Below, in pieces: positions 14,821 through 34,142 of a DNA stretch of 64,000 nt (position 1 is the stretch's first letter; each line of letters opens with the position of its first letter). The stretch covers positions 1-64,000 of IMG/VR virus record IMGVR_UViG_2508501001_000004; one strand, written 5' to 3'. This stretch comes from a virus. Lineage: Duplodnaviria; Caudoviricetes. The translations under genes and the position numbers were made by a program. Under the pieces are notes generated by a model that was given only the letters and a program-made list of their open reading frames with translations, was not told where the DNA came from and did no database searches.

Positions 14821-15226
14821 ACCCCTCCTGTTTCATAGACTGCATTAGCCGATCTGATTCAGCCCTGCGCAGTACATAAAAATTATAGGCTACAAAAAAA
14901 TGAAGTACCCCGTCAACAATTTCATGACGCATTCCGGTACCCCTGACAAGCCTGCCGTCCACGCTGATCAGCTCCATCTTGTCATAGAGCTGCTCTGCCA
15001 TGTCATGCAGGTTTCCATTACTTCCTCCATAATAATGAAGATCAAAGAAATGAAACCGTTGATACCGCTGGCCAAGCAGTTGCTCCTGGGACGCAGAAAG
15101 GAGCTTTACAAAAAAACAAGGTTCTTCAAAATCCTCCGCAAGTTCTTCTTCATAAATGCTTATATCGGGAAAATTCTGATCCAATACCGATATAATGCTG
15201 TCGCGAATGAGGTTGACAGTTATCAA
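14807..15226 (-). CDS. Tail terminator/completion protein (XkdJ-like position)
   Basis: PCFFVKL, DGVLHFFV.YNF; paralog of 50941-51366. Confidence 0.7.
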   Translation of the reverse strand: MITVNLIRDSIISVLDQNFPDISIYEEELAEDFEEPCFFVKLLSASQEQLLGQRYQRFHFFDLHYYGGSNGNLHDMAEQLYDKMELISVDGRLVRGTGMRHEIVDGVLHFFVAYNFYVLRRAESDRLMQSMKQEGYVRG

Positions 15227-15756
15227 TAAAATCCCTCCTTTGGTGCAGACCCTTCAACCGGCCTAACCCCTTTGAACTGGAATCCCTGGTTTTCCTTTTT
15301 CTCCTCACTAAATAAAAAAGCCTTGGATTCTTTTAACGATTTGAGCTGATCGTCTAAGCCGACTTTAATTGACCCGTTCTCATTTAGTTCAATCTTTGTT
15401 TTGTCCAGCAGACTAGCAACAATATCTGGATCGTGGGCCTTGCCAGTTAGAGCCAACTTAAGGGCATTAGTTAGCGTAATGGCCTTCACGTCAGCCTCAT
15501 AGTTCTCCTTAGCCTTTTTATTTTCACTTCGGAGGTTAATAATCTCAACCTGAAGGCCGGCAGTATCCACTTTCTTTAGGTCTTCAATCTGCTTATCCCG
15601 GGTAGCAATGTCCTTTTCCAGCTGCTTTTTAGCGCCGTTCACTTCATCGAAACGTAATTTTGGAATATAGCTCCTCAGCTCAACTTGAGACGCTGCCGCG
15701 GCCTTCACTGCTAATTCCTCTCTCAACCCGAGGGCAAGAAACTGCTCTTTATTCAT
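15223..15756 (-). pseudogene. C-terminally truncated capsid scaffold (phage GP20 family)
   Basis: MNKEQFLALGL..YIPK.RFDEVN; ends at the RBS of the next gene; paralog 54025-54666 is longer. Confidence 0.75.
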
Positions 15757-15775
15757 GATTATCGTCCTTTCATCG

Positions 15776-15857
15776 TCACTTTTTGCCCGGTCGTGTCCGG
15801 TGATGTCCTGTTCTTTTACGCCGGCAGTACCGAAACGGCGGCACAATAAAAGCACTC
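15776..15857 (-). ncRNA. Conserved structured leader upstream of scaffold gene (GP20-type cis-regulatory RNA candidate), copy 1
   Basis: Two hairpins; 20-nt core at 15786-15805 identical to 54698-54717. Confidence 0.6.
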
Positions 15858-15879
15858 TTACCTTTTGGCTCGAGTGCTT

Positions 15880-15975
15880 TTCCATTTCTGGAGCTTCTGT
15901 ACACTTTAAAATTTGGAAGTCATCCAAGGTTTTCAGAACATCCTAGCCTGGAATTTCTTTATACCGCCTCCCCGC
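15880..15975 (-). pseudogene. Remnant of MuF minor head protein linker
   Basis: RYKEIPG*DVLKTLDDFQILKCTEA aligns with RYKKILGKDAPKTFDDFRDLKYTEA of 55516-57312. Confidence 0.6.
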
Positions 15976-16100
15976 TCTCCTCCATTTTGGCCTAAACCGA
16001 ATAGTCATTGAAGCAGCTCATTTCTTCTTCTCTTTCTCCAGCCTTCCCAACTCTTCTTAACATCTGTCATCCAAGGATAGTTGCTGACTACAGCTTCATT

Positions 16101-17300
16101 CTATATAATTCCACGGTTGTTTTTGGCATCTTCAATTACTGCACTTTCCTTAATAAGGATATCCCGGTTAAAACGAAAATCAACCGCCTCATTCGAGTAA
16201 TCCCGGCCGGTGGTATTGGCAATATGAGCATCAATAAACCAGCGCAGCTGTTCTAAACTCGCTTGAAATTCAGATTCGATAATATTGGCATCCATGTCCA
16301 GACCAGCATAAAGAACTTTAAGATCGATTCCCGACGGGCTGTTTCCAATCTTGTCAGGCTCGAATAAAACGCCTCTGCCAAATTCATAGATATCTTTGCG
16401 GTTCATCTCCATATGAACTTTATATGCCACATAACTAGAATTTGTCAGATCCTCTAACTTGTTGACATTGTCACTCTTTCGGGCGTCATAGTCATCAATC
16501 AGCTCTTTGATCAGATCCAAAAGAGATTGCTCTTCTTCGTTATATTTAAAGGCAATGAAGGGTACACGCTCCCAATTGACTGGTTTTACGCTATCTCCCT
16601 GAACAACTGTAAAGTGCGCCCCTTCTTCTCCTTCCTCTATATCGGGAACTAGTCCGTACTGTCCCCCGCTTTGTAGAATATATCGTTTTACGCCGTTTAT
16701 ATCCCACCATTCAATCTTCGTTACGACAGTTCGCCGTGTTTCTTCGTAGGTCTCCACCTCATAAACTCTGATCACAGCCTGCAAATCTCTATGTGCTGCA
16801 TTATACCAAAGGGGAATGATTTCTTCCGATGGGATCCTCATAAAGGACAATTGGCCAGTTTCGTCATAGTAGACGTGCAGCCAGGCAATACCTTTCTTGA
16901 TTGCCTCTTTTCCAATATTCTGCAGCATTCGAAGCATCGACTTTCCCCAAAAAGTGGCAAGCTGCTTTTGATAGTCTTGGATGTCTGTCTGTACGCTCAG
17001 CGGTTTGGAAAACAAATATCCAACTTTCTGATCTACCAGCTTGCGAAAAAAGCCATTGACCAATTTATTATTTGATAAATTCCCAACAATTTCTTTTTCC
17101 CCACTGGCCCCGATCTCCCTTCGTTCACGGTTCAGGATGTCTGTTTTATTTCGGTAATAATTCTCCCCTTTGATCATCTCTTTTCGCTTATGAGACGACT
17201 TCCACTCGCTAACCTTTATAGAGATAATCTGCTCCAAGTTCGTCAAATTTTTTACGCCGGCCACGCTCATTGTGGCGATGCGCTCATTTTCTATAATCAC
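16101..17300 (-). pseudogene. SPP1-gp6-like portal with internal 40-aa in-frame deletion and premature stop
   Basis: Colinear with portal 57490-58974; homology continues past TAG (NEAVVSNYPWMTD). Confidence 0.8.
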
Positions 17301-17477
17301 GTCAGTCTCACCTCTTTTCCGGATAGTTTCTGATTTATCAGGCTGCGTGTCCAATGGGATAATTAATGGAAAACAGCTCTGAAGAATCCCTTGCCAGCCA
17401 ATAAAAAACGGCTAACAGAGGAATAGTCAATAAATATACAATAATCTTTGATCAAGTATAGTTTTGTTATGCAATAT

Positions 17478-17590
17478 AAAAAGCGCTCCTTTCGGAACGC
17501 TCTTAAATCATATTTTTGCATTATAGAAATTTTAACATAGCTAAAAGGGATTGTACAGGGCAGGACTTTGGGCATCAATCGGGCAGGACC
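17478..17590 (-). promoter_or_regulatory. Putative late promoter with GTCCTGCCC direct repeats and downstream hairpin
   Basis: Repeats at 17558-17566 and 17581-17589; TATAAT-like -10; hairpin GAGCG-TTCCGAAAGGAG-CGC followed by a T-run. Confidence 0.55.
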
Positions 17591-18129
17591 CGGACATTTT
17601 CATTCAAAGCATCTGCTCCGAAAAGCATAATCTTTAGTTTATTCACCAGGCGATTTTTATTTCTTCTTACAGTTTTTTCATCACATTCAAGATCCGAGGC
17701 AATGCTTTCAATAGTCATTCCATCCCAGTATTTCATGGGAACTATTTCATAATATTTATCATCTTTAATCACTTCAAGGGCCCTGTCAATCCTCATTACC
17801 TCCTGCCTCGTCCGCATCATGCTTGACTTTATACCTTGCGTATATCTGTCAATATCCAATCCATGACTTCCGGTATTACTCGTTGAAAACCTTATAATGT
17901 CTTTTGAGCGATTATTCGTAGGAGTTGTATAGGCTTCAGGATCAAATAAGAATTCTTCATCTTGAGCAACCTTTAGCTTCAAAGCTTGGTAATTATACAG
18001 CAGGGTTTCTGTTTCTTGAAAGAAATTACGTTCAACAAGTGTATCTTGCGTCGCAGCTTTTGCGCTTTCTTGAGCCACCTTATTTACAACCGTTTCAATT
18101 AGTTTAAGAACTTCATTATTGAGTTTCAA
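17575..18129 (-). CDS. RinA/ArpU-like late transcriptional activator
   Basis: C-terminal sigma70-r4-like HTH (KYWDGMTIESIASDLECDEKTVRRNKNRLV); TTG start after GGAG. Confidence 0.75.
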   Translation of the reverse strand: MKLNNEVLKLIETVVNKVAQESAKAATQDTLVERNFFQETETLLYNYQALKLKVAQDEEFLFDPEAYTTPTNNRSKDIIRFSTSNTGSHGLDIDRYTQGIKSSMMRTRQEVMRIDRALEVIKDDKYYEIVPMKYWDGMTIESIASDLECDEKTVRRNKNRLVNKLKIMLFGADALNENVRVLPD

Positions 18130-18400
18130 TTTTCTCCACTCCTCTCCTTTATTTAACTTACGGCTTACATACAATCTCCCTTGATTCCAGTTGCTTACAT
18201 CCTCCCCTCTCTGCCACTTCATTTTTAACCAGCCCAGTCTCCATTTATCCTAGTACCGAATATTCCCGGTGACAGTCGCTCTTCTGTAACCTTTCCAACT
18301 CAAGTAAGCCTCTAACTGTAAGATTGACTGTGACTGCCTGTTGCTTACGTGACATTTTCTTCTCCCTGTCTCACTTTCAAATTATCATTACTTATTCTTA

Positions 18401-18802
18401 GATAATTTAATTATCAAAAACGCCAAAAAAATAAACATCCTACAAAACATTGACGATAAAATAATTATCACATATAATGTTAATTAGATAAAAAAATTAT
18501 CATTTCAATGCTTTTCGCGGCTCCCGTAAAGATCAGGAAACAATATTTCAATTGGTTCATCAAAATACCTAGACATTTTGAACATTAAATCTCTGCCAGG
18601 ATTAAATGTTCCATTCTCAATCATCCGCACATAAACCTCAGAGATCCCCAAGTCTTTGGCAACCTCTTTTTGTTTGCCCTTTTTCTTCCTACACGCGGAG
18701 AAGAAGTTGCGCCTTTTTTGCATTTCCTAAGTTCACCTCCTTGTGTTTTGATTATATTTGATAATTATATTATCGTCAAGATATTTTGTTAATATAATTA
18801 TC
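18401..18802. promoter_or_regulatory. Repressor operator array GATAA-N5-TTATC and twin sigmaA promoters
   Basis: Palindromes at 18401, 18455, 18487, 18760, near-match at 18788; TTGACG-N17-TATAAT at 18450-18478 (+) and 18779-18751 (-). Confidence 0.8.
18505..18723 (-). CDS. Cro-like XRE HTH regulator
   Basis: KQKEVAKDLGISEVYVRMIENGTFNPG HTH; divergent from CI. Confidence 0.85.
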   Translation of the reverse strand: MQKRRNFFSACRKKKGKQKEVAKDLGISEVYVRMIENGTFNPGRDLMFKMSRYFDEPIEILFPDLYGSREKH

Positions 18803-18823
18803 AAAAAGAAGGGACGTTGCTCC

Positions 18824-19231
18824 ATGATTGGTGAAATCCTTGCCGAATTAAGAAATAGAAGAGGGCTTACTCAAGACCAGATGGCTGAGGCCCTAAATGT
18901 AAAAAGACCTCGCTACAATTCTTGGGAAAACAATATAGCTAAGCCAGACATAGAAATGCTCCAAAAGATAGCTAAATTTCATAATGTTACACCCGACTAT
19001 ATTCTTAATTTTGAATCTGACAGCCCAGTCCCCTCCTGGGCCACTGCAAAAGATAAGCGCGATTTCAAGAAAATGCTCGAAGAAGACGATGACTTAATGT
19101 TTGATGGCATCCCTATCGAAAGCGATGACCGCCAGAGAATCAAAGACGTTCTCACCGGCCTTTTCTGGGAAGCCAAACAGATGAACAAACGCAAAAAGAA
19201 ACCTGACAGCACAAACGACACCAAGAAATAA
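18824..19231 (+). CDS. CI/ImmR-like XRE repressor
   Basis: LTQDQMAEALNVKRPRYNSWENNIAKPD HTH; followed by ImmA. Confidence 0.9.
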   Translation: MIGEILAELRNRRGLTQDQMAEALNVKRPRYNSWENNIAKPDIEMLQKIAKFHNVTPDYILNFESDSPVPSWATAKDKRDFKKMLEEDDDLMFDGIPIESDDRQRIKDVLTGLFWEAKQMNKRKKKPDSTNDTKK

Positions 19232-19270
19232 ATCCTGGTGCCGTTTTTTATAAAGAGGTGCAACTAAAAA

Positions 19271-19690
19271 ATGGACAAACTTATACATACTTTAACCCGT
19301 AAGTATAAAACCAATAACCCCTTCACTATCGCTGAACATCTTGGAATTCATATTCGTTTTGCTGATCTGGGGGAGCACACTCGAGGTATTTATTATAGTA
19401 AGCTCAGACGTAGATTTATCGTAATTAATTCTAGGCTGAATTCTCATTGGCAGCGATTCATATGCGCCCACGAGCTGGCACACGACAGACTTCACAGGGG
19501 TCTAAACCGCTTTTTCTTAGATAAATACTCCTTTTCAAACGCCAATAAGTACGAAAGACAGGCAAATCGATTCGCCGTTCAACTAATTTTAATTAATACA
19601 AATATACATTCAGGTGAGACCATTGAAGACTTTTTTCTTAAAAATGGCGTTCCGACCGAGATGATTAAATACTATACAAGAAACTCTTAA
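19271..19690 (+). CDS. immA: ImmA/IrrE metallopeptidase anti-repressor
   Basis: RFICAHELAH HExxH; E.QAN.FA motif. Confidence 0.9.
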   Translation: MDKLIHTLTRKYKTNNPFTIAEHLGIHIRFADLGEHTRGIYYSKLRRRFIVINSRLNSHWQRFICAHELAHDRLHRGLNRFFLDKYSFSNANKYERQANRFAVQLILINTNIHSGETIEDFFLKNGVPTEMIKYYTRNS

Positions 19691-21708: not shown

Positions 21709-21737
21709 AAGCCGGAGTCGGAAGCTCCGGCTTTTTT
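21709..21737 (+). terminator. Intrinsic terminator
   Basis: AAGCCGGAG-loop-CTCCGGCTT plus T-run. Confidence 0.75.
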
Positions 21738-22732
21738 CATTCAGTAAGAGTAACTTGAATAGGTTCACTTTTAAGCTTAATACTTTGAGTTCTATTTTCA
21801 TAAACTATAACTGCTTTATACTCGCCACTAGGAACACCGTCAAACCAAAAAGATGGCAGTTGTTCGGGAATCTCTGGATGATCAGTATTGACCTTTAAAG
21901 TCGTACTATAAGAGCTGGTAGCTGATGTCAAGATCAAAGTTCGATCAATGTTCCCTTCTATGTCTGGTTGGACATATTGTAGTACAAAATTAGTTTTGGA
22001 TACTATCGTGTTGTCTTGTGGAATCAATATTTCAGGAGACTTTACTGGGCTTTCGTCAATAGTCACATTGACCTTTGGCATATATTTTGGAACATTATAA
22101 CCCGTTGATGGATCAAGTATATATACTGTAATTTCATAACGATGACCTATTATTAAATGACCCTTGGGTAATATGAAACTGTTTTTATCGGCAGGCACAT
22201 TAGCTGTATAATTGCGAAGATATGGCAGCGCTGTATCCCTGTCTGTAACATCTACAGTGTAACTCGTAGCACCCAGAACCGGAGTCCAGATTATTTCAAT
22301 ATCGCCATAAGGCAGTATAGCTCCATCTTTAGGATAAATGATACGTATAGATGGATCCGTTAAATAAATAGGATAGAGCTGAATTGCTTGACCAATCCTC
22401 AACCTTTGGGGATCAAGGCCTGGATTAGCAGCGATGAGCCCTGAAAGAGACGTGTTATTTGCGCGAGCTATTTTGTAAAATGTATCACCCGGTTTGATAA
22501 TGTAAATTTTATAGGCAGTACTCTGACGCTGTAGATACCCCCAGGTTATTGGCCCTACTATTCCATCGTGAACAAGTCCGTAGTCTTTTTGAAATTGGAT
22601 TACTGCAGACGCTGTTTTTACTCCAAAAATCCCATCAGTTATCCCTGGATTATAGTTCAAGATACTTAAAGTGGACTGTAATTGAATAACATCTTCTCCA
22701 GTCGATCCTATACGTAATATTCGCAACTCCAT
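21737..22732 (-). CDS. PG_binding_1 + LysM + Ig/FN3-like protein, no catalytic domain recognised
   Basis: DGIFG..T.SAV..FQ...GL..DGIVGP.TW; YIIKPGDTFYKIA..N. Confidence 0.8.
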   Translation of the reverse strand: MELRILRIGSTGEDVIQLQSTLSILNYNPGITDGIFGVKTASAVIQFQKDYGLVHDGIVGPITWGYLQRQSTAYKIYIIKPGDTFYKIARANNTSLSGLIAANPGLDPQRLRIGQAIQLYPIYLTDPSIRIIYPKDGAILPYGDIEIIWTPVLGATSYTVDVTDRDTALPYLRNYTANVPADKNSFILPKGHLIIGHRYEITVYILDPSTGYNVPKYMPKVNVTIDESPVKSPEILIPQDNTIVSKTNFVLQYVQPDIEGNIDRTLILTSATSSYSTTLKVNTDHPEIPEQLPSFWFDGVPSGEYKAVIVYENRTQSIKLKSEPIQVTLTE

Positions 22733-23196
22733 CACCCCTGCTGCATTATACCCTTATACAATATGTTATTTATAAAGGTATAGTGTTTCTCAGGGATATC
22801 GTAGGCTGCGATCTCCTTAGTCCCCCCAAAAATAGGCTCAGCATTCTCTACTGCTGAGCGTAGCTTTATCCTGTCCCAAACATCCCTCATATAGGTTTCT
22901 CTGGGGCGAATATGTCCTGATACTTTGAGTTTTCCAGAGTAGGGTGCATCCTTATCAAAGAAGAAGATGCAAGAAACATAAAAAGCACCGTCCTAAACGG
23001 TGCTCAACTTACCCAAGAAAGCCGAAAAGCCCAGCATTGCTGGGCTTCGTATGTTCATTCATTGTATCAAAGATTGAGTACTTATTGGTGGAGGCGACCT
23101 TACACTATATAAAACCCTGCAATATAAGGCGATATTCAAGTAGGAAAATAAAGGATTTTAGACCTTCCCCTAGAATAAAGTTTCTAGGTGATGCGT

Positions 23197-23454
23197 ATGG
23201 ATAGTAGTTTAAGAAAAAAGCCAAGAATTCAAAATAACCTTCGATATTACCGGGAAAAACTCGGAGTCACTCAAAAAGAGATGGAGTATCGAACTGGTGT
23301 CGGAAATCGTCACTGGCCCTCCTACGAAAATGGGACTCACGAGCCTAAGGTTTCATTGGCTCAGTGCATGGCGGCTGCATTTAATGATATAGCCGCCGAA
23401 AAAGAAATTGAATTAAAAAGGTTAACAGTCGATGATCTGTACCCCCCTCAATAG
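23197..23454 (+). CDS. XRE-family HTH regulator
   Basis: LGVTQKEMEYRTGVGNRHWPSYENG; CCTAGAA-N6-TTCTAGG palindrome over its RBS. Confidence 0.75.
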   Translation: MDSSLRKKPRIQNNLRYYREKLGVTQKEMEYRTGVGNRHWPSYENGTHEPKVSLAQCMAAAFNDIAAEKEIELKRLTVDDLYPPQ

Positions 23455-23481
23455 ACTTCCACAAAAAGGAAGTCTATTTTT
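23450..23481 (+). terminator. Intrinsic terminator
   Basis: AATAGACTTCC-loop-GGAAGTCTATT plus T-run. Confidence 0.75.
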
Positions 23482-23569
23482 TATGCCCTTATGGAATACA
23501 TCGCGGTTTTTTGAGTATCAATTACTAACTATTTAGTATTACTAAACATTTAGTAAAGGAGCTGATCCC

Positions 23570-23782
23570 ATGGAGCAACTTAAAGTCACCAGTGTCTCCT
23601 TGACCCCCGACCAAATCACCTATACCAAGGGCAAAGGCAACACCAGCCGCTACATCCGCAGCCTCATTGACCGCGAGATGGGCAACGAGCAAGCCGCAGA
23701 GCGGTGTCAGGCGCTGGTAAGGGCGTACCAGAGCATTATTGACCGACAAAAACAAAAAGAGTCCGGGGACCCGGACCGATGA
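23570..23782 (+). CDS. Small ribbon-helix-helix-like protein
   Basis: AAAGGAG RBS; VTSVSL..DQ..Y...N.SRYIRSLID pattern. Confidence 0.5.
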   Translation: MEQLKVTSVSLTPDQITYTKGKGNTSRYIRSLIDREMGNEQAAERCQALVRAYQSIIDRQKQKESGDPDR

Positions 23783-23879
23783 GCGCAGACTTTGCCTATG
23801 TAAGTTTATCGTCTATAAACTTTATGCGACAGCTACCCCGAAATATGTCTACGAGCAAGCATAAAGGGAGGAAAATCAA

Positions 23880-24200
23880 ATGTTAAGATTAACCAGCCAT
23901 TTTCGAAGGCATAAAACGCTCTGTATTCAGGTGGGAATTACGGCGGTCGTTATGTTCCTCTCCCCTACCGTTGCCCTCGCTTCAAGTGTTGATGACGGGG
24001 GAATGAAAATATACTGGAAGATCGTTAATGTAGGTAAATATGTGATTTTGGTTAAAGGTGCGGTTAACTCTATTCAGTCCGTTTTGGATGGGGATTACGA
24101 AAAAGCAAAGCACCAGTTTATAGGGTATCTTATATGTTTCGGAGCAATGCTTGCTCTCCCTGGAGCTTTAAATCAGATAGAGGAGTTGTTTAAGTCATGA
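23880..24200 (+). CDS. VirB2/TrbC pilin-like membrane protein
   Basis: Signal peptide ending VALA, two hydrophobic helices around GDYEKAK. Confidence 0.55.
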   Translation: MLRLTSHFRRHKTLCIQVGITAVVMFLSPTVALASSVDDGGMKIYWKIVNVGKYVILVKGAVNSIQSVLDGDYEKAKHQFIGYLICFGAMLALPGALNQIEELFKS

Positions 24201-24826
24201 TTATTGCGGCTTTAAAGACCGGAGTTATTTTAGCAATTGTAACAATGGTTATGACGAAGCCGGTTTTATTCATGAGCTACATGCATGTTATTGTTCTACT
24301 TGGCTGTACGTCGTTAATCGTTCTATACGTAGGAGGATTCAGGCCGGGTATCAGATGGGTCGGTATAACTTTAGTGGGATACATTCTGCTTCACATTTTC
24401 ATTGATGTAAACGGCAACGGAGAGACTTTCGTCAAAGGGGAATATATTGCTCCTGTAATTGGTCCTGTATCCAGCCCTTACGGACCGCGTGCCTCTTCCC
24501 CTGACGGTTTTCATTACGGTATCGACTTCGCCGTTCCCGAAGGAACCAGAGTGCTTGCGAGTAAGCCTGGTACAATATGCTTTGCCGGGTATAAGGGAAA
24601 TATCGTTGGGAACGTTGTAGAAATCAACCATCAAGACGGGGCGCAGACTATGTACGCGCATAACAGCCAGGTTTTAGTTTACGTAGGCCAATCCGTGCAA
24701 CAAGGTGACGTAATAGCTTTAAGCGGTAACACAGGCCGTAGCACTGGACCACATGTGCATTTTGAAATAAGGCTGGATAACGGGAAAACCTCAGTAGATC
24801 CTGCACCTCACTTAAATTTACAGTAA
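24197..24826 (+). CDS. Multi-TM protein fused to M23 peptidase
   Basis: HYGID, YAHN, STGPHVHFE M23 motifs; hydrophobic N-terminal ~70 aa. Confidence 0.85.
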   Translation: MIIAALKTGVILAIVTMVMTKPVLFMSYMHVIVLLGCTSLIVLYVGGFRPGIRWVGITLVGYILLHIFIDVNGNGETFVKGEYIAPVIGPVSSPYGPRASSPDGFHYGIDFAVPEGTRVLASKPGTICFAGYKGNIVGNVVEINHQDGAQTMYAHNSQVLVYVGQSVQQGDVIALSGNTGRSTGPHVHFEIRLDNGKTSVDPAPHLNLQ

Positions 24827-24838
24827 GGAGGCGACACA

Positions 24839-27196
24839 ATGAAGTCAATTAAACTTTGCGACTATATAGCAATCGTAAAGCCTTCCTACGTTTATTTAAA
24901 GCTTACACCTAATAACTCGATACGAAATAACACTTCCAATAATTTGGCAAAAACTATAGGCTCTCTTTACAAAACCTTTCATCAAAGCATAAAAATTGAA
25001 CACAAAAAATTAATTAAATTATTCGGGAAGAAATTCGTCTTGGGTTCCAAGTATTCTTTAATACTAAACCCCAAAGTTAGCTATTACATTTATATAGAAA
25101 AGAAACGGATCGAGTTTTACTTTATTGTTCCAGAGCAGTCTCAAAGCATTATTAAAGAAAAAATGACAGATTCCTGGAATAACGTAACAGTCCAAGCTGT
25201 GAATGAACTTCCAGGCTTCAACGAAGACGTCACTACCTACCAATTAGACTACTCAAAAGAAGATGGTCTCAGTCTTGCCGTTGACAAACGCAGTAACAGT
25301 CTCTTAGAAAGTAACCTTAATATAGTAGACATCATGCATGAAGGCGATAAAGTGGGGATCTTTTATAACTTTATTCCTACATCCCAACGAAGCTGGTTAA
25401 GTGAATATAAGGCTACCATCACTAAAGTACGCAAAGAGCAACCTGTAGATAAAAATAAGACTGGTATTATTTACTTATTTAAGCTGGCATTCTCCCTTTT
25501 ATCGGGGCTTGTAGACGATGTCGGCGGGTTCCTTGGTGATGACAGCCGTCAAAAATACTTAGTTAGGTATGAAAAGAACAATGCCTCTATTCTAGAGCAA
25601 ACATTACGTAGCGCAATTAATCATAAAGTAGTGTCTAATGCAACCGTAACTAAAGGCAAGCACATGGTACTAAATATTCAAGCTATCGTACTGAGTGAAA
25701 GTAAGGACGACCTACACCAGCGAAATAACGCAATAGCTCTAGCCCAAAGCTACGACTGCATAGGTGAAGATAATAGCTTACGACACCGAAAGTACAAAGG
25801 TAAATTCCATCACTTAGATACTAAGATTAAAGGGGCTGCTACGATGAAAGTAAGCGTTTACGAATGCGGCAACTTCTTGGCGCTCCCTGGACGTGAATTA
25901 CTTGAAAAACACAAGTTTATTGAAAAGGTAGAGACATTAGAGACTGAGGTGCCGGACGAACTCCTAAAGGGAGTAATGTGCTTAGGCGAAAACACGTACA
26001 AAGGCTATACACAAAAGGTCTACATGAGTACAGATTTTGATTATCAAATGCTTTCGCTGGTACTCATCGGGCCTAACCGGGCAGGCAAATCGAAGTTCCT
26101 TGCAAACATAGCCCGGGATGCTATTGAGGCAGGAGAGTGCGTAATCATCCCCGACTACATCGGGAGCTGCCAGCTAAGTGAAGAAATCGCAACAACCTTC
26201 CCAAGAGATAAAGTTCTGGAGATTAGGTGTGATCACTGGGATACGTTGCAAGGGCTTGGCTATAATGAGGTTCCACGAAGCACAACCCATTTTATCCAGT
26301 ACAAAAATGCTAAGGAGCAATCGGCTCTACTGATGACGCTCGTTGATAGCATTAATGCTGACGATGCAAACTTCACGGCTAAAATGGGGAGATATTTTGA
26401 AAGCGCGGCATTAGCGGTATTCCTGTCTAATGGTAATATAAAAGACGTATTCGCCACTCTAATTAATTACAAAGTCAGGAAGTCATTTATAGACCGAATA
26501 CCTGCAGAGCAAATGGAAAACATGGAAGAGTATATCGATTACCTACATGAGCTGGATAACGTTGAAAAAGGCAAGGTAGTTGGCACCAAGATGCACTTAA
26601 TTACCGGTGCTGTAGATAGGCTACAAAAGCTTAAGGTTAATGCTTATATCGAGACCATGCTTAAAAAAGGAACTGAGAATAATATTGATCTGGTTAAGGA
26701 AATGCAGAAAAACCAGCTTATAGTTATTAAGATGCCTCAGCGTATGTTTCTGACCGACAATGAGAAAGACGTTTATGTAACTTATTGGCTCACTAAGATA
26801 TGGCTTGCCCTGCAGATCCGGGAAGAGCAGATTCAAGATAGACGCAAAATGACTAAGGTAAACTTAATTATCGATGAGCTCTACCAAGTGAACAATGCGG
26901 AGAAATTCCTCAAGCTGAAACTTAGCCAGCTCCCGAAGTTTAATCTTAAACCTATCATCAGCTGCCATTACCTCAACCAAGTTAAGACTATCCGCGAAGA
27001 ATTCAGGAGCGCCAATGCGTCATATATGCTCATCAGCGGATGTGATAAAAAGAATTATGATGAGTTGAAAAGCGAACTATACCCCTATACGGAAGAAGAC
27101 TTGTTAAGCCTTAAGCGCTTTCACAGCTTGAACCTGATGAAGTGCAATGAAGGATACGCGAAGTTCATAACTAGCTTACCGGCACCTATTTCTTAA
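24839..27196 (+). CDS. Large HerA/VirD4/VirB4-superfamily P-loop ATPase
   Basis: Walker A GPNRAGKS, CVIIPD strand, Walker B LIIDE, ISCHYLNQ. Confidence 0.75.
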   Translation: MKSIKLCDYIAIVKPSYVYLKLTPNNSIRNNTSNNLAKTIGSLYKTFHQSIKIEHKKLIKLFGKKFVLGSKYSLILNPKVSYYIYIEKKRIEFYFIVPEQSQSIIKEKMTDSWNNVTVQAVNELPGFNEDVTTYQLDYSKEDGLSLAVDKRSNSLLESNLNIVDIMHEGDKVGIFYNFIPTSQRSWLSEYKATITKVRKEQPVDKNKTGIIYLFKLAFSLLSGLVDDVGGFLGDDSRQKYLVRYEKNNASILEQTLRSAINHKVVSNATVTKGKHMVLNIQAIVLSESKDDLHQRNNAIALAQSYDCIGEDNSLRHRKYKGKFHHLDTKIKGAATMKVSVYECGNFLALPGRELLEKHKFIEKVETLETEVPDELLKGVMCLGENTYKGYTQKVYMSTDFDYQMLSLVLIGPNRAGKSKFLANIARDAIEAGECVIIPDYIGSCQLSEEIATTFPRDKVLEIRCDHWDTLQGLGYNEVPRSTTHFIQYKNAKEQSALLMTLVDSINADDANFTAKMGRYFESAALAVFLSNGNIKDVFATLINYKVRKSFIDRIPAEQMENMEEYIDYLHELDNVEKGKVVGTKMHLITGAVDRLQKLKVNAYIETMLKKGTENNIDLVKEMQKNQLIVIKMPQRMFLTDNEKDVYVTYWLTKIWLALQIREEQIQDRRKMTKVNLIIDELYQVNNAEKFLKLKLSQLPKFNLKPIISCHYLNQVKTIREEFRSANASYMLISGCDKKNYDELKSELYPYTEEDLLSLKRFHSLNLMKCNEGYAKFITSLPAPIS

Positions 27197-27262: not shown

Positions 27263-27301
27263 ACTACACTATATGTCCATGCCCCAGGATGTGTGACAAA
27301 G

Positions 27302-27329
27302 CGCCGGCTAATTGCCGGCGTCTTTTTTG
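27302..27329. terminator. Bidirectional terminator
   Basis: GCGCCGGC-loop-GCCGGCGT with T-runs. Confidence 0.7.
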
Positions 27330-27335
27330 CCGAGA

Positions 27336-27923
27336 TTAAAATTTCGGGAATTTCCCCTCATCAATAAGCCTTTGTCTTTGCTTAGCCATTTTGGCTGCTT
27401 CTCGCTTTTGCTTTTCCAAAAGCCCTTCTCTTTCCGCCTCGGCTTCCCTCCATGATATTAACTTAGGAATTGCCGCATAAATAAGGTTCTCTATAGATCC
27501 AAACTTTTTACCCGTAAATGGGCAAATATATTGCGTCTTTATGCCTATCTCGGCCAACTCTGCGCCCTTGGGGAAAAGATTACGTATAAGATCATCCTTT
27601 ACGTCAGCGATAACTCCCTGGGAAGGATCTAGACTGTGCACATAGATATAGTGGTCCCAGTCTCTCATTAGGTCTTGCATCGTGTAAACAATCCCGCTCC
27701 TCTCAACGGCTTTAGGAGATGGGTCTTTCTTCTTTTGAGCCTTAACCGGGGCCGGGTTCATTTTTTCCTGTATGGCCGCATTAACGAAGGCGTTAACGCT
27801 CAAGCCTTTCTTCTCGGCAAAAGCTTGGATTACTTCCTTTTCCCCTTTTTTCACAGTAAGGGGTATCCGATCATATGCCTTTTCGTTATACTTTCGATTT
27901 GCTTTAGTTCGCGCCGTGGGCAT
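27336..27923 (-). CDS. Arc/RHH DNA-binding protein with C-terminal extension
   Basis: ANRKYNEKAYDRIPLTVKKGEKEVIQAFAEKKGLSVNAFV. Confidence 0.75.
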   Translation of the reverse strand: MPTARTKANRKYNEKAYDRIPLTVKKGEKEVIQAFAEKKGLSVNAFVNAAIQEKMNPAPVKAQKKKDPSPKAVERSGIVYTMQDLMRDWDHYIYVHSLDPSQGVIADVKDDLIRNLFPKGAELAEIGIKTQYICPFTGKKFGSIENLIYAAIPKLISWREAEAEREGLLEKQKREAAKMAKQRQRLIDEGKFPKF

Positions 27924-28519: not shown

Positions 28520-28656
28520 GCTTCGAGCTGGCTTTGCAAAGTCAGCCTTGATATAGATTTTGATCTTTGTGGCCTAAATATTTATACTTTCGGCAGGAAT
28601 CTCCATAATTTAAGAGAAACTATACTAAAAATACAATATTTTGGGGGTTGTTCATA

Positions 28657-29574
28657 ATGGGGGAACAATTGCGGAAAGCGGCATATAAGGGCGACGTTGT
28701 CATTGGTAATATTAGAATACCTTGCGCTGTGTTAGACAATGGGAAAAGAGTATTAAGCGAAACTGGTATAACCCATGCTATACTAGGAACGGCAAGCGGT
28801 GCATCAAGGCGACTAAAAAAAGAACACCAAGAAGCCGGGGCCCCTTTGCCCGTTTTTATAGCCCCTAAAAACCTGAAACCCTTTGTTGATAAGGCTTTAG
28901 ATGTCGGGTCCCTTGATCCAATTTTATATTTAGACGGGAAAAGAACCGTCAGTGGTTACGATGCATCAATTCTTCCTACTGTATGTGATATTTGGCTTAA
29001 TGCAAGAGAGGCAAATATATTACAGAAACAACAATTAGATAAGGCATTGAAAGCAGAAATTCTTATGAGGGGCCTTGCTCATACAGGTATAATAGCTTTG
29101 ATTGACGAGGCTACTGGATATCAAGAAGTAAGAGAAAAAGATGCCCTTCAAAAATTGCTAGCCATTTACTTGACAGATGAAAGACTAAAATGGGCAAAAA
29201 TGTTCCCAGATGAATATTATCGACAACTATTTAGATTGAGAAAATGGAATTATGATCCCCTTGATACACACAGACCGAGATTGGTTGGAAAATTGACTAA
29301 TCAATTGGTATATGAAAAGCTGCCCCCCGGTGTTCTTGATGAGCTAAAGAAATTGAACCCCGTCAAAAATAAACAGTCAGGTAGAAGAGAAGCTACCCAC
29401 CACCAACATCTTTCAACAGACATTGGACAAAAGGACTTACGTGACCATCTTATGCAGTTGATAGCTATCATGAGGATATCATCTTCGTGGGAAATATTTA
29501 AAAAGAATTTTCAAAAGGCTTTTCCTCCTTCAAGCGGAATACAGGAAGAATTATTTGAAGAAGAAGATCTATAA
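28657..29574 (+). CDS. P63C-domain protein
   Basis: GIIALIDEATGYQ..R...ALQ..L..YL...W.K.FPDEYY; HHQHL. Confidence 0.85.
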   Translation: MGEQLRKAAYKGDVVIGNIRIPCAVLDNGKRVLSETGITHAILGTASGASRRLKKEHQEAGAPLPVFIAPKNLKPFVDKALDVGSLDPILYLDGKRTVSGYDASILPTVCDIWLNAREANILQKQQLDKALKAEILMRGLAHTGIIALIDEATGYQEVREKDALQKLLAIYLTDERLKWAKMFPDEYYRQLFRLRKWNYDPLDTHRPRLVGKLTNQLVYEKLPPGVLDELKKLNPVKNKQSGRREATHHQHLSTDIGQKDLRDHLMQLIAIMRISSSWEIFKKNFQKAFPPSSGIQEELFEEEDL

Positions 29575-29998: not shown

Positions 29999-30176
29999 TA
30001 TTATAAGGCGAATGAAGCGAAATTGGTAGAGGAAAGTTTTGGGTGTCGTGATCATCCAATAACAAAAAGACTCCTCATCATTCGATGAGAGTTAATTTGC
30101 GCTATTAAAACTCAAGCCTTACTTAGGAAGTCCAAATTTAAATACTAAGAATGTACAAAACCATCCCCTTTTATAG

Positions 30177-31181
30177 CTATTTATTGATTATCTTACCTAT
30201 ATTCTTCATCTCTATAGATAAAGTTCCATCAGGATTATTAATGAACTCAATATAGTCCTTATTATGGAAGTAATCCGCTGGAAATGTTATTTCGATTCCC
30301 GTGTCAGTTTTAATCCTATGATTTTTTCCCTTTTTGATTGCAAAGGATCTATCTACCTTTACTGTCTCGGGAATGCCAGTATTTTTTACTTCTTTAATAT
30401 ATTCTTCTTGCATTATAGGAGAAGAGTTAAATACTTCTTTGCCTAATTCTGTCGTATCTAAGTATTCTGATACTTCCGCGTTTTCTACTAAATAATTTTT
30501 AACCTTAGAGATAGCCGCAACACTGCTTTGTCCATGATTCTCTGATACCATGCGTGTAATGGAATGAAGCAAATCAATTGCGTTTTTAGGAGAAATAGTA
30601 GAGTTACATCCTAAAACTATATCGGATAGGATATAAGTATCCTTACCATCAATAAATCTTTTCTTGTCACAGAATCTAATATCTAGAGAGCTTACCTCAA
30701 TAATGGCATATTCATCGATTTTTTGTGAAATATTTGGTAATATAGCATAATGATTGATGATTCCATTTTGTATTTTTCCCTCATTTTTAATTACTTGATG
30801 AGTAAACCCCACTTTATTATTACATTTTAATATTGCAATAAACCTTTTATCATCAATGTTCACGTCACAAACGATTAAATCTGCAGGTTCTAAAATATCT
30901 GATAGAGATATAGCGGAGTATACTAATTCTGCGGTATGAACAGAAAAACTAGTAAAGTCTATATTATCGGTAACGTATTCCGTAAGTTTTTTCTTGTAAC
31001 TACTATCTGCATTAAAATTACCAGATTTTGAACCAGAATCGTTCATTATCTTTTCAATATGTTTCGTTAAGAAAGTAAGAACACTTTTACTCCCTATATC
31101 TAATTCCTGATCTGAAAATACCATTATACCGGACTTGAAATCCAGAATATGCAGAATAGCCTTATTTATTATCGTTATCAA
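30177..31181 (-). CDS. YejK/NdpA (37-kDa nucleoid-associated)-like protein
   Basis: INKAILHILD start, IAILKCNNK, KIDEYAII, IKTDTGIEI.FP motifs. Confidence 0.7.
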   Translation of the reverse strand: MITIINKAILHILDFKSGIMVFSDQELDIGSKSVLTFLTKHIEKIMNDSGSKSGNFNADSSYKKKLTEYVTDNIDFTSFSVHTAELVYSAISLSDILEPADLIVCDVNIDDKRFIAILKCNNKVGFTHQVIKNEGKIQNGIINHYAILPNISQKIDEYAIIEVSSLDIRFCDKKRFIDGKDTYILSDIVLGCNSTISPKNAIDLLHSITRMVSENHGQSSVAAISKVKNYLVENAEVSEYLDTTELGKEVFNSSPIMQEEYIKEVKNTGIPETVKVDRSFAIKKGKNHRIKTDTGIEITFPADYFHNKDYIEFINNPDGTLSIEMKNIGKIINK

Positions 31182-31809
31182 TATGTTCGCCTTCTCTTTC
31201 TTTTTTAAAGATAATCAAAAGCTTATAGGCAATACTCTCTCTAAACAATACTATTGTATTATATATAGCACTCTTTAGTTCGTAAATAATTCGAAATATA
31301 TACGTGAAGTAGATAATAAGTACCAGTACCGCCAAGCTATTATTAATTATATAATTACTAGTCAATACCCATTCATTGACTATACAATTTAAGAACAGCA
31401 ATATCACACCAGTTATACATAATCCTATAAAATACAGAAACAATACAGATTCATAATATTTAGTACTGATCATCAAAGATGATACACCATCAGTTTTGAG
31501 TTTTGCTAGTTCCTTTATATATTTATCGCTCAAAAATGCCAATAAAATAGCATAGATAGTAAATAGGTATCCAAATATATAAAGCAACACATTAAGAAGA
31601 ACCCCTACTATAGCTAATAATATTTTTACCGTATTTTCATTAATCCCTATTATGGCAGCAAAAAAGACACCTAGAACAAAGCTAATAACGAAAGCAATCC
31701 AATTATTTTTATCTGGAGTAATTTCTTTGAAGGCGTCTATTATCATCTTTTTTGCAGGTGTTTTTTCTGTAAATTCATTAATTGTCGCAAAATATTTTTC
31801 TTCGTTCAT
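31162..31809 (-). CDS. Four-TM membrane protein
   Basis: Four hydrophobic segments; overlaps next gene by 20 nt. Confidence 0.8.
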   Translation of the reverse strand: MNEEKYFATINEFTEKTPAKKMIIDAFKEITPDKNNWIAFVISFVLGVFFAAIIGINENTVKILLAIVGVLLNVLLYIFGYLFTIYAILLAFLSDKYIKELAKLKTDGVSSLMISTKYYESVLFLYFIGLCITGVILLFLNCIVNEWVLTSNYIINNSLAVLVLIIYFTYIFRIIYELKSAIYNTIVLFRESIAYKLLIIFKKEREGEHIDNDNK

Positions 31810-31846
31810 TAATTTACACCTGCTTTCTGTCGAAGAAATCACAATA

Positions 31847-32791
31847 TCACAATAATGAACGTAAGGCAGCTACATATCTTTTATACCAAGCCTCGTTTTC
31901 CTTACTAACATTTTTTATTATTGATTCTTTTTGTGCAATTAAAACGAAATATTCATCATCATCGCTAGTTACATCTTTAGCGAAAGCAATTTTCTTGTTA
32001 GACGAAAAAGAATCTTCTCTAATTTTTTCATCCTCGCCGTCTTTATTCTTAACAAATAGTGTTGTTCTAGCTTGCCCAGAAGTCTCTTCTAATAATTTTT
32101 GAATTCCCTCTTTAGAGTCCGGGGAGTTAAATGTTAAATTAGTGGTATTTGAACCGAGACTTTTCATTTCTGCTCTAATTGAGTTTGCAATTGGTCGCTT
32201 ACCAAAATCATTATTAAGTGGAAAAAAATTAAGTTTTACCCACTTAATTTTTTGAACACTTTTGAGTACAGCGTTAATGTCTTCTTTAAGTGGCATATCT
32301 ACAATATTGACTAAGGCGTTCGGCAAAGTTGTAGTAGGCTTACGTTTATTTTCTCGTTGTTCCTTATTAGCTTCACGGGTATATTTATTCAGAATATATC
32401 TTACTGTAGCTTGGAAGCTTCTAATATCGGGACTTACAGATTCATTTCGCACCAGAATCATGCGATGATTTTTTAAAAAAATAATAAATCTTGAGTAAGG
32501 AGCCGTTGGGTGCTTTGCCGGGGAAGCGGTTAACGCTCCATTCGTAACAGTTGTATGAATCGTATATTCAGTTTCTTTTATATAATTTCCAACGAGTATA
32601 TATTCCCCGCCTTTGATTTGCTTGATCTCAACATCAGTAAATAGAAAATGAGGGATTTCATCAACCTTTCCCCTCATGATACCAGATGTAAAAGCAGGAA
32701 AAATGATGTCCTTGAAATGTGATAGCATTGGCTCTGCTTTTTCCCCAAAGGTAATATTGAAATTAGCCAAGTGCATTATCTTTTCGTTCAC
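31847..32791 (-). CDS. Hypothetical soluble protein, DUF4747-like
   Basis: FIIFLKNHRM..SP....F...L and VNIV..P...I...L..I..V.L..PLN.D pattern reminiscent of DUF4747. Confidence 0.5.
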   Translation of the reverse strand: MNEKIMHLANFNITFGEKAEPMLSHFKDIIFPAFTSGIMRGKVDEIPHFLFTDVEIKQIKGGEYILVGNYIKETEYTIHTTVTNGALTASPAKHPTAPYSRFIIFLKNHRMILVRNESVSPDIRSFQATVRYILNKYTREANKEQRENKRKPTTTLPNALVNIVDMPLKEDINAVLKSVQKIKWVKLNFFPLNNDFGKRPIANSIRAEMKSLGSNTTNLTFNSPDSKEGIQKLLEETSGQARTTLFVKNKDGEDEKIREDSFSSNKKIAFAKDVTSDDDEYFVLIAQKESIIKNVSKENEAWYKRYVAALRSLL

Positions 32792-32962: not shown

Positions 32963-33361
32963 CTACATTACCGGATCGCTCTCTACCTCCGCGCTGGGCT
33001 GCGGCGTAATAATCGGCGGGCTGACGTCCGGGACCTGGGCCTTATAAACAACTGGCTCAAGGGCACTAACCACCGACTGCTGCGTACTCGGCTGGCTAAT
33101 GTTATGGGCACCGGCCGCCGTGATCGCCACCAAAAACGAGTTAAGCACGGATAACCCAATAGCCTCAACCGTAAAATTACCGCTGACAAACAGGGTAAAA
33201 AGCTGGATCACCAGCGCAAAGCCCACGGCCATAAGCCGTATCCACCAGTCGCTTAATCGTGCCTTGACAGGCTCCTTAAAGAATTGGACGAGCAAATACG
33301 TCACAGCAACCAGACCGGCATAACTCCCCAGGTAGGACGTGGTAAATAAATCGGTGGGCAT
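32963..33361 (-). CDS. Holin (3 TM)
   Basis: LGSYAGLVAVT.LLVQFFK; position after endolysin. Confidence 0.7.
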   Translation of the reverse strand: MPTDLFTTSYLGSYAGLVAVTYLLVQFFKEPVKARLSDWWIRLMAVGFALVIQLFTLFVSGNFTVEAIGLSVLNSFLVAITAAGAHNISQPSTQQSVVSALEPVVYKAQVPDVSPPIITPQPSAEVESDPVM

Positions 33362-33401: not shown

Positions 33402-34142
33402 TTACCCCAAATACTTCGCCACAGCAGCCGCTGTCTGATATTTATCGTTCCCACTCAACAGGACTTCGTTTGGATGATTGGTCGTTGCCCCGCCCACCAC
33501 GATCAGCTTTTCAGCCGCCCTAGCCTCCGCCGGCACAGAGAGATCCGGAGGCCGCACAAAGATGGCACAATTACCATGCTTTACGGCAACATCATACCCC
33601 GCCCAGAAGTCTTCCTTCGTATATAGTAGGACAGCTGTTTTTAGCACATCTCTCCCTCCCTTCAAATCCTTGAATAACCTATCCCACGGGAATCCAACCC
33701 CCGGGCAATTAGGCCTATTAACACTGTCGATACGGTAATGCCCTATGATGTGATCAGCATCAATCGGTATACCGTATTTTTGCGTTAGATCCTTGTGCAG
33801 CCAAAGCGTGGCTTGGTATTGGGCCTCCGGCATCACATCTCCTGGCTGGCCCTCATGCTCGATCCCGAGTGTGTAAGTGTTTGGGTTCGTGCCATCATAC
33901 AAAGCCCAGCTTGGCTTGTTGCGAATGCCCGCGTGCCAAGCCGTGTCTCCTTCTTTGACCAGCTGCAGGATGCGGCCTGTCTTTGTTACGAGATAGTGAG
34001 CACTCGATTGCGAAGCCGGATTGCAAAGCCAATTGAGACAGCCAGGGTAACTGCCGGCGGTGACGTGGTCCACTATGGCAATGATTTTGCGTCCTCCCCT
34101 GCTACTGTAATTCGGGGATGGATGCCATTCGATTACTGGCAT
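33402..34142 (-). CDS. Endolysin, Amidase_2 with CWB2-like C-terminus
   Basis: DHVT, SAHY, AWHAG, GIEHEG, IIGH..CPG motifs. Confidence 0.9.
   Translation of the reverse strand: MPVIEWHPSPNYSSRGGRKIIAIVDHVTAGSYPGCLNWLCNPASQSSAHYLVTKTGRILQLVKEGDTAWHAGIRNKPSWALYDGTNPNTYTLGIEHEGQPGDVMPEAQYQATLWLHKDLTQKYGIPIDADHIIGHYRIDSVNRPNCPGVGFPWDRLFKDLKGGRDVLKTAVLLYTKEDFWAGYDVAVKHGNCAIFVRPPDLSVPAEARAAEKLIVVGGATTNHPNEVLLSGNDKYQTAAAVAKYLG

Follow-up and report, generated by a model that had tools for sequence, protein, structure and literature searches.

A prophage-associated operon for a pilin-like protein, a hairpin-M23 protein and a VirB4-like ATPase, related to the SPP1 gp31.1-31.2-32 module

Membrane modules built around a secretion-type ATPase are already in the phage literature on informatic grounds, as gp31.1-31.2-32 of SPP1 (2018) and as the "DNA translocation operon" of 0305phi8-36 and SPO1 (2012). 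In SPP1, gp31.1 and gp31.2 are membrane proteins, the C terminus of gp32 is TrwB/VirB4/FtsK-like, and it was suggested that the three could form a translocon that carries macromolecules across the membrane (Godinho et al. 2018, PMC6316719). The operon of 0305phi8-36 spans orf200-207 and includes a MOBC-like relaxase (orf200), an ATPase (orf201), a VirB6-like protein (orf203) and an actin-like protein (orf207), with gp27.3, gp27.4 and gp27.9 as the counterparts in SPO1 (gp27.3-27.9) (Pathria et al. 2012, PMC3357382). Here, we analyzed a four-gene operon at positions 23570-27196 of a 64,000-nucleotide stretch of the virus record IMGVR_UViG_2508501001_000004 (the window), which corresponds to 5.376-5.440 Mb of a 5.66-Mb single-contig genome. 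By sequence comparison, this operon and SPP1 gp31.1-31.2-32 are members of one module family, in which SPO1 gp27.4 and 0305phi8-36 orf201 are more distant relatives. The operon is a phage-borne, cut-down relative of the inner-membrane core of type IV secretion systems (T4SSs), made up of a VirB2-type protein, a hairpin-M23 protein and a soluble VirB4-type ATPase. A first-pass annotation of the DNA had stated that no characterised system of this composition was known; experimentally this is true, but the module itself had already been described (PMC6316719, PMC3357382). The open reading frames are exactly as that annotation had given them, including the four-gene composition, the motifs and the ATPase of 785 amino acids. 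All four are co-directional and intact, and each is preceded by a Shine-Dalgarno sequence that makes a good ribosome-binding site.

23570-23782, plus strand: gene for a 70-amino-acid protein; ribosome-binding site AAAGGAG
23880-24200, plus strand: gene for a pilin-like protein of 106 amino acids; preceded by AAGGGAGG
24197-24826, plus strand: gene for a hairpin/M23 protein of 209 amino acids; start in an ATGA overlap with the stop of the pilin-like gene
24839-27196, plus strand: gene for an ATPase of 785 amino acids; AAGGAGG before the start, 12 nt past the stop of the hairpin/M23 gene

The tight coupling claimed for the operon holds for the last three genes, with their ATGA overlap and 12-nt gap, but not for the first two, which are 97 nt apart.

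When the family of the window ATPase was compared with SPP1 gp32 by using hhalign, the two aligned as full-length homologues with a probability of 99.5% (E value of 5.6e-23) over 725 columns. SPO1 gp27.4 and the window ATPase matched by tblastn with 21% identity over 87% of the query (6e-11). The protein falls into phrog_5156, a family without an assigned function (1.5e-82), and its closest relatives are encoded by Desulfitobacterium and Desulfitobacteriaceae metagenome-assembled genomes (MAGs). It is divided into a VirB4-type N-domain (residues ~10-368) and a RecA-like C-domain (~369-785), and the latter contains both the Walker A motif GPNRAGKS (411-418) and the Walker B motif LIIDE (676-680). 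G411, P412, G416, K417, D679 and L681 do not vary among 27 homologues, and S418 and E680 hardly do. A transmembrane (TM) segment was not predicted.

Structural comparisons were made with an AF2 model (pLDDT of 82.8). Full-length TrwK/VirB4 chains ranked first in the Foldseek search with the ATPase (2.5e-14). The C-domain (369-785) matched VirB4 (4ag5) best, with a Z score of 26.9 (rmsd of 3.6, 336 residues aligned), followed by TrwB (Z score of 26.1) and then DndH-C and HerA (Z score of 23.6), with the HerA/DndH matches in the range of 20 to 25. Furthermore, the N-terminal 375 residues were modelled alone and compared with 48,161 representative chains. The best match was TrwK (7o42_A) with a Z score of 14.8 (rmsd of 3.3, 234 residues aligned), whereas the next best reached only 8.4; Foldseek also connected this domain alone to TrwK/VirB4 (2.7e-5). 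The first-pass annotation had called the protein a VirD4-HerA ATPase, and this label has to be replaced. VirD4 has an N-terminal TM anchor, whereas the window protein has none and its first ~370 residues are a soluble VirB4-type domain. HerA is no better an identity, since the N-domain is of the VirB4 type and the likeness to HerA and DndH is confined to the shared C-domain. As judged from the modelled folds, the ATPase is a divergent two-domain VirB4 relative and not a VirD4 or HerA protein.

The two membrane proteins were compared across 38 related loci, 31 of them from named genomes and the others from contig look-ups and phage records, which cover Bacillaceae, Paenibacillaceae, Clostridiaceae and Desulfitobacteriaceae and whose open reading frames were clustered. 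The 106-residue protein starts with a basic N terminus and a hydrophobic signal ending ALA-SS, followed by a helix, a short charged loop and a TM helix; the hydrophobic segments lie at residues 13-37 and 79-98. The pattern of a signal, two hydrophobic helices and a short charged loop is conserved in 30 homologues. In sequence and hydropathy, the protein has the features by which TrbC/VirB2 proteins are recognised, that is, a signal peptide, two helices, a short charged loop and a mature length of ~70 residues. ESM Atlas features placed it at 0.90 to clusters in which 17-31% of the members have TrbC. By structure, a Bacillota TrbC/VirB2 cluster (TM score of 0.84) and a TcpD cluster (0.65) came nearest, with a low-confidence model (pLDDT of 0.61) and with a fold, the short helical hairpin, that matches easily. 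Since none of 30 family members matched the Pfam models TrbC and T4SS_pilin, "VirB2-like" is a statement about architecture and not about family membership. Homologues of the protein (found by phmmer down to 3e-4 and by profile at 1e-20 to 1e-35) are encoded immediately upstream of the ATPase in 33 of the 38 loci by clustering and in more by profile.

The 209-residue protein has ~3 TM segments within residues 1-73, of which an extra N-terminal one precedes a conserved TM hairpin (~24-69) with the loop GGFRPGIRW. This hairpin was matched at 4.7e-11 by a profile made from the C termini of the corresponding proteins of other loci, and the hairpin protein was recognised by profile in 31 loci. The C-terminal part is an M23 domain (Pfam Peptidase_M23, 9.1e-34, residues 105-202, 116 bits versus a cut-off of 28.7 bits). 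The zinc-ligand motifs HxxxD and HxH are present as HYGID (106-110) and HVH (186-188) and are invariant in two close homologues, and the domain is intact and is predicted to be a LytM-type endopeptidase. An identity as SpoIIQ was considered and rejected, since the NCBIfam score of 64 bits (cut-off, 250 bits) reflects the shared M23 domain only. The order hairpin-M23 is found in the window and in two other Desulfitobacteriaceae loci, the order M23-hairpin in 21 loci, and a hairpin without M23 in 7 loci. SPP1, SPO1, Wes44, phiCp-D and TPDSL_ph2 also lack M23 and keep the ATPase, pilin-like and hairpin genes; the M23 domain is optional and mobile within the module. It is joined to one end of the hairpin in some lineages (21 loci) and to the other end in others (3 loci), which argues for a joint function of the hydrolase and the hairpin protein. 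In the majority variant (L006:9066-9752 and 20 other loci), M23 starts ~20 residues from the N terminus and there is no signal peptide.

The trio of pilin-like protein, hairpin protein and ATPase recurs in all 38 related loci, and the gene set is far from chance. Every one of these loci belongs to a phage, a prophage or a phage-plasmid and keeps the compact order of the genes, and none is an integrative and conjugative element (ICE); the surrounding genes encode holins, amidases, tail endopeptidases, integrases and terminases. The first-pass annotation had raised the questions of whether homologues always lie with a relaxase or T4SS and whether the genes co-occur at all. The phage contexts (38 of 38) and the plasmid types (33 of 34 non-mobilizable) answer the first in the negative, and the survey, with the pilin-like gene beside the ATPase in 33 of 38 loci and the hairpin in 31, answers the second in the positive. 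No relaxase accompanies the prophage-type module in the 38 loci, nor are VirB6, VirB8, a coupling protein or a relaxase conserved neighbours there. A jackhmmer search with SPO1 gp27.3 against all open reading frames of the loci and the window returned only the query itself. The earlier statement that no relaxase, VirB6/VirB8 or integrase is near the operon also stands: the whole genome is devoid of a Replic_Relax relaxase, and the 64-kb window is devoid of a tyrosine integrase. Likewise, the canonical VirB4 N-domain of Pfam (PF03135) had no match in the whole genome, and megablast of the 6.7-kb region against phages gave no match. The plasmid matches comprised 34 records, mostly Clostridium plasmids of 40-60 kb, and the one record that was inspected is a phage-plasmid with a terminase beside the module. 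A 69-kb Paenibacillus planticolens contig labelled "Circ", with the module and an actin-like gene, may be a plasmid-prophage comparable to the 57-kb phage-plasmids of Clostridium botulinum. A full-length ATPase homologue in a sampled Bacillus-phylum genome (G343:C42:4062-6419) is broken by one in-frame TAG.

The relatives add a further gene to this picture. In 16 of the 38 loci, the gene directly upstream is a partition gene, for either an actin-like protein or TubZ. The actin-like gene (Pfam ALP_N) is directly upstream and co-directional in 13 loci, including a Desulfitobacterium MAG whose ATPase is 66% identical, and points in the opposite direction in phiCp-D; in three Paenibacillus loci its place is taken by TubZ and a TubR-like gene. 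After the actin-like gene comes a small, adaptor-sized gene. The SPO1 string is similar, with ParM-like gp27.9, three small TM proteins, the ATPase gp27.4 and the Replic_Relax protein gp27.3 (Pfam, 2.9e-12), and gp20, gp19 and gp18 of Wes44 repeat the module pattern. In Paenibacillus mangrovi, two actin-like genes flank the module, one of 271 amino acids upstream and one of 384 immediately downstream of the ATPase. In the window genome, the one ALP gene is ~4 Mb away, and tblastn with the actin-like gene of the Desulfitobacterium MAG found no remnant in the window. What the window does have is the 70-residue protein, which is soluble and basic and has no predicted TM segment. It is weakly related (1.2e-4) to a profile of the 67- to 83-residue proteins that 12 loci encode at the same position, before the pilin-like gene and after the actin-like gene where there is one, and it is 34% identical to its Cytobacillus counterpart. 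An RHH-like (ribbon-helix-helix-like) regulator had been annotated here. The gene is indeed present at the position of the small adaptor, but the fold is only weakly supported: Pfam gave no match, and the Atlas returned one RHH row (TM score of 0.53) among unrelated rows. The protein is possibly an RHH/ParR-like small adaptor or regulator.

Besides the window genome, only 1 of 400 sampled Bacillus-phylum genomes has the ATPase family, which is too rare for statistics; therefore, named phage and plasmid records were used to determine the host range. By tblastn, the window ATPase matched 50 phage records (42 from Bacillus, 2 from Lysinibacillus, 2 "Deep-sea" phages and 1 each from Clostridium, Terrisporobacter, Brevibacillus and Geobacillus). 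SPO1 gp27.4 matched 146 records, and all but one weak Microcystis match were from Bacillus, Geobacillus, Lysinibacillus, Alicyclobacillus, Brevibacillus or Clostridium or were two "Deep-sea" records. The SPO1 tail sheath, used as a control, matched 978 records, among them 343 Staphylococcus, 69 Enterococcus, 55 Listeria and 26 Lactobacillus phages. SPO1 relatives on non-sporulating hosts are thus plentiful in the database, but at this sensitivity not one of them was found to have the ATPase. Endospore-forming genera are also the source of all named bacterial loci. Homologues were thus found almost only in phages and plasmids of endospore-forming Firmicutes, a striking pattern drawn from records that are not phylogenetically independent.

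How might such a module work? It is very probably a membrane module of this phage family with its origin in a T4SS, and the resemblance to a T4SS core noted in the first-pass annotation is real, given the VirB4-like folds and the VirB2-type architecture. As its function we favour a conduit through the envelope, probably for phage DNA, and give this explanation an even chance. In the T4SS of R388, hexamers of VirB4 are seated on VirB3 and supply the pilus with VirB2. By analogy, a ring of the window ATPase would dock on the cytoplasmic face of the hairpin protein, with the conserved basic loop GG[FW]RxGxRW as the likely contact. The loop is placed in the cytoplasm because of the positive-inside rule, and in the topology of the window protein M23 would then be outside. 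ATP hydrolysis would pull pilin-like subunits from the membrane to form a short conduit, and M23 would cut peptidoglycan cross-links locally so that the structure could cross the wall. Gene linkage in the relatives suggests that actin- or tubulin-like filaments might bring phage DNA to the complex via the small adaptor protein. Since the trio lies directly downstream of partition cassettes in relatives and beside a Replic_Relax-type nickase in SPO1 and 0305phi8-36, phage DNA is the most probable cargo, and we put DNA forward tentatively.

The restriction to phages of spore formers makes a septal or forespore route attractive. Transfer of DNA or protein between cells or into the forespore, as suggested in the first-pass annotation, would draw its support from the partition genes of the relatives and from the host range. 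SPO1 is known to form virospores, and its ParM gene was mentioned as a possible contributor (2026 study, PMC12991052). In the widest form of the idea, phages of spore formers would share a route for their genomes that needs neither relaxase nor particle: a VirB2/VirB3-like/VirB4 conduit, fed by filaments in many lineages and opened through the wall by M23, would carry phage DNA across the septum to the forespore ("virospores") or to a sister cell. The occurrence of the module in phages of spore-forming hosts alone would then be accounted for. We regard this wide form as improbable, and passage into the forespore or across the septum, taken by itself, as unlikely.

A number of observations weigh against a DNA conduit in general or its sporulation form in particular. 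First, no experiment on any member of the module shows a function. The SPP1 genes are expressed early, in an ordinary lytic infection, and their disruption showed them to be non-essential (PMC6316719); deletion of the 0305phi8-36 operon had no effect on laboratory growth (PMC3357382). The window has no partition gene, nickase, VirB6-like channel protein or coupling protein. To our knowledge, VirB4 ATPases are not established as DNA motors. Second, family models gave little. The sole Pfam match of the ATPase was TrwB_AAD_bind with 15.5 bits, below the cut-off of 20.5 bits; the curated VirB4 models (Pfam CagE_TrbE_VirB, AAA_10 and DUF87; NCBIfam) were not matched, and NCBIfam gave nothing. A profile of the 27 homologues, run against PDB sequences, did not find VirB4 but only a chance match to a designed protein, and the assignment to the VirB4 family therefore rests on the folds. 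Among the pilin-like proteins, 0 of 30 family members matched Pfam TrbC (PF04956) or T4SS_pilin (PF18895) at an E value of ≤1. Third, the sole TM segments of the majority M23-hairpin variant are those of the C-terminal hairpin, and its M23 domain has no signal peptide; the domain would have to reach the wall either via a translocated long N-terminal tail or by export through the module itself. Fourth, the Spo0A box TGTCGAA occurs 5 times in the window (6.3 expected) and not near the operon, and the SigK-type pattern AC-N17-CATAnnnT occurs 7 times in the window (7.4 expected) and not upstream of the operon on its strand. No local evidence ties the operon to sporulation. Early expression in SPP1 together with the absence of sporulation signals weakens the septal or forespore route.

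Outside the four genes, the operon is bordered by elements that may control it.

23188-23454, plus strand: gene for an Xre-type helix-turn-helix (HTH) regulator of 88 amino acids, candidate regulator of the module; Pfam HTH_19 1.7e-6 and HTH_3 1e-4, both just under the cut-offs
23450-23478: terminator-like hairpin between the Xre-type HTH gene and the operon
23521-23556, unstranded: tandem 17-bp repeat, candidate operator or cis site; copies at 23521-23537 and 23538-23554, 88% identical
27301-27330, plus strand: intrinsic-terminator-like hairpin closing the operon; 8-bp stem with 7 GC pairs, then the T-run CTTTTTTG

The HTH protein also matched the transcriptional regulator family phrog_8 (1.7e-8), and an Xre-type HTH gene adjoins the module in 22 of the 38 related loci. 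Each copy of the repeat, which lies just upstream of the operon, is an imperfect palindrome, TTACTAA-N3-TTAGTAA. A weak sigma-A-like sequence, TTGAGT-17-TAGTAT (23511-23539, 8 of 12 matches), overlaps the repeat; it was read by eye, and the promoter scan did not report the site. From gene linkage in the relatives, we infer that the adaptor-sized gene and the tandem repeat are all that the window keeps of the partition arrangement. An 86-amino-acid open reading frame at 22944-23204, rich in Arg and Lys, of low complexity and without a homologue, overlaps terminator-like hairpins and was treated as non-coding.

In this Desulfitobacterium-like spore former, two phage-derived elements border the accessory DNA that contains the operon. 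On one side is the lysis cassette of an intact PBSX-like prophage, on the minus strand (amidase, 33402-34142; holin-like, 32963-33361), in line with the prophage setting that had been annotated; on the other side, a second phage-derived element, this one head-less, has its Xre/ImmA immunity genes (18758-19690). Two collinear PBSX-like sets of tail and baseplate genes are found in the window (1-17354 versus 35535-64000, minus strand), in which the lengths of the open reading frames match (341, 345, 133, 118 and 328 amino acids in both). The left set has no obvious head or terminase genes and starts beside a sigma-like regulator (17575-18222) and the Xre/ImmA pair. A 332-amino-acid protein encoded at 21737-22735 (minus strand) has an N-terminal PG_binding_1 domain, a LysM domain and 200 C-terminal residues without a recognisable catalytic domain; just upstream of its gene, on the same strand, is a match to the SigK-type pattern (22758-22784), the frequency of which is no better than chance. 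Downstream of the operon follow two phage accessory genes. The first encodes a 195-amino-acid protein (27336-27923, minus strand), of which the first 66 residues match phrog_13890 (5.7e-25) and which has a weak Arc-like signal, and the second a P63C-domain protein of 308 amino acids (28648-29574, plus strand; phrog_2384, 4.6e-96). They separate the module from a three-gene block of low G+C content (30177-32791, minus strand) just downstream of the prophage lysis genes, which the first-pass annotation took for a candidate defence operon. The first 2 kb of this block (30001-32000) has only 30% G+C, and its 314-amino-acid product has no Pfam match.

Other functions were also considered. The same parts could form a surface filament or a protein export device without DNA cargo. 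Driven by the ATPase, the pilin-like protein would polymerise to give a short pilus or adhesin, or else a phage protein would be exported, possibly the signal-less M23 protein; either would change the cell surface, aggregation or the remodelling of the wall. VirB4 is indeed best established as an ATPase for pilin extraction and pilus biogenesis (R388, F), the pilin-like and hairpin proteins are the sole universally conserved partners of the ATPase, the M23 protein of the majority variant has no signal peptide, and the window operon contains no DNA-handling gene. However, a device of this kind leaves unexplained why partition cassettes recur in the same direction, why a nickase is present in some relatives and why the hosts are spore formers, and no conserved candidate for a secreted substrate was seen. 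We consider it doubtful.

Alternatively, the module could serve superinfection exclusion or abortive infection: phage DNA on its way in would be sensed or blocked at the envelope by the ATPase and the membrane proteins, or these would trigger wall damage by M23, and the lysogen or the infected cell would be protected from competing phages. A place in the accessory ("moron") region after the lysis genes would fit, since defence genes are frequent in such regions and a candidate defence operon adjoins, as would the dedicated repressor-type regulator and the early expression of the SPP1 copy, which is usual for exclusion genes (PMC6316719). Also, the C-domain resembles the defence ATPases HerA and DndH (Z scores of 20 to 25), and PADLOC reported a weak match of the ATPase to mads8 (1.6e-5). 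However, PADLOC gave no real match for any of the four proteins, and the N-domain is of the VirB4 and not the HerA type. HerA-type anti-phage systems such as Sir2-HerA, DUF4297-HerA and DndFGH were considered and rejected: no nuclease, Sir2 or other effector is a conserved partner of the module, and mads8 was the only PADLOC match. Moreover, the repeated linkage to actin- or tubulin-type partition genes, plus a nickase in lytic phages, would not be expected of an exclusion system, and exclusion seems unlikely.

An accessory role in lysis or wall remodelling, in which a membrane-tethered M23 under control of the ATPase would assist the neighbouring holin-endolysin cassette, is very improbable. 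The module often comes right after the lysis cassette and M23 domains do occur in phage lysins, but M23 is missing from at least 7 loci and from SPP1, SPO1, Wes44, phiCp-D and TPDSL_ph2 while the rest of the module persists, and the SPP1 and SPO1 modules lie outside the late lysis block. Finally, a decayed ICE or conjugative-plasmid fragment that landed between two prophages would account for T4SS-like parts in a window without an integrase, but is hardly credible and was rejected because of the phage contexts with their preserved compact order (38 of 38 loci), the non-mobilizable plasmids (33 of 34) and the lack of an accompanying relaxase, to which add the homologues in 50 to 146 sequenced phages, the four intact genes with good ribosome-binding sites and a genome without Replic_Relax or the canonical VirB4 Pfam domain.

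An envelope conduit remains the explanation that we favour. The module was first noticed 14 years ago, and its presence in the classic phages SPP1 and SPO1 offers genetically tractable systems. The present analysis shows the motor to be a true two-domain relative of VirB4 and the hairpin protein to be its conserved partner, with M23 fused to either end of the hairpin, and these results together give a concrete structural model that can be tested. If the cargo is phage DNA, the module would give viruses a new means of moving or hiding their genomes and would bear on how lytic phages enter spores; if it serves exclusion or acts at the surface, viruses would have put T4SS parts to an unusual new use.

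How, then, does the window operon compare with known systems? A possible functional analogue is TraB/clt of Streptomyces, in which a single ring ATPase moves double-stranded DNA across septa without a relaxase and recognises a repeat-containing cis site. TraB is of the FtsK type and has TM segments of its own and a DNA recognition domain, whereas the window ATPase is of the VirB4 type, soluble and without a recognisable DNA-binding domain. With canonical T4SSs, in which VirB2, VirB3 and VirB4 work beside a VirB1-type hydrolase (TrwL/TrwM/TrwK of R388, Tcp of pCW3, Con of ICEBs1), the operon shares the order pilin-like protein, small TM protein and ATPase, the two-domain VirB4 fold and a dedicated peptidoglycan hydrolase. 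It differs from them in having no VirB6, VirB8, coupling protein or relaxase and in reaching no Pfam or NCBIfam threshold for T4SS proteins; its hydrolase is an M23 enzyme and not a lytic transglycosylase or NlpC/P60 protein, and its carrier is a phage and not a plasmid or ICE. That such reduced sets can function is seen in archaeal DNA import by Ced/Ted (CedA, CedA1, CedA2 and CedB), where a VirB2-like pilin, a VirB4-like ATPase and small membrane proteins move DNA without a relaxase (Beltran et al. 2023, PMC9905601). The likeness is one of composition only, and unlike the window operon, Ced has a polytopic VirB6-like protein (CedA), is chromosomal and is induced by UV.

Among phages, SPO1 and 0305phi8-36 have a homologous ATPase (phrog_5156 territory) with small TM proteins encoded just upstream, as in the window, and a string headed by an actin-like partition gene, as in 13 of the 38 related loci. 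However, these TM proteins have no detectable homology to the window pilin-like protein, and the two phages add a Replic_Relax/MOBC-like nickase and, in 0305phi8-36, a VirB6-like protein, neither of which is found in the window or in the prophage-type loci. Closest is the set 31/31.1/31.2/32 of SPP1, found also in Geobacillus phage GBK2, which like the window operon encodes a small soluble protein, a TM protein of ~120 residues, a protein of ~105 residues ending in a two-TM hairpin and a soluble ATPase of ~800 residues; the hairpin of gp31.2 and the N terminus of gp31.1 resemble their window counterparts. SPP1 differs in being a virulent phage with early expression of these genes, in the lack of M23 and in an identity of ~22%, whereas the window copy is prophage-borne and M23-fused and has its own operator and regulator. 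The window operon is a genuine variant of this previously noticed module family, prophage-borne, fused to M23 and with the domains swapped.

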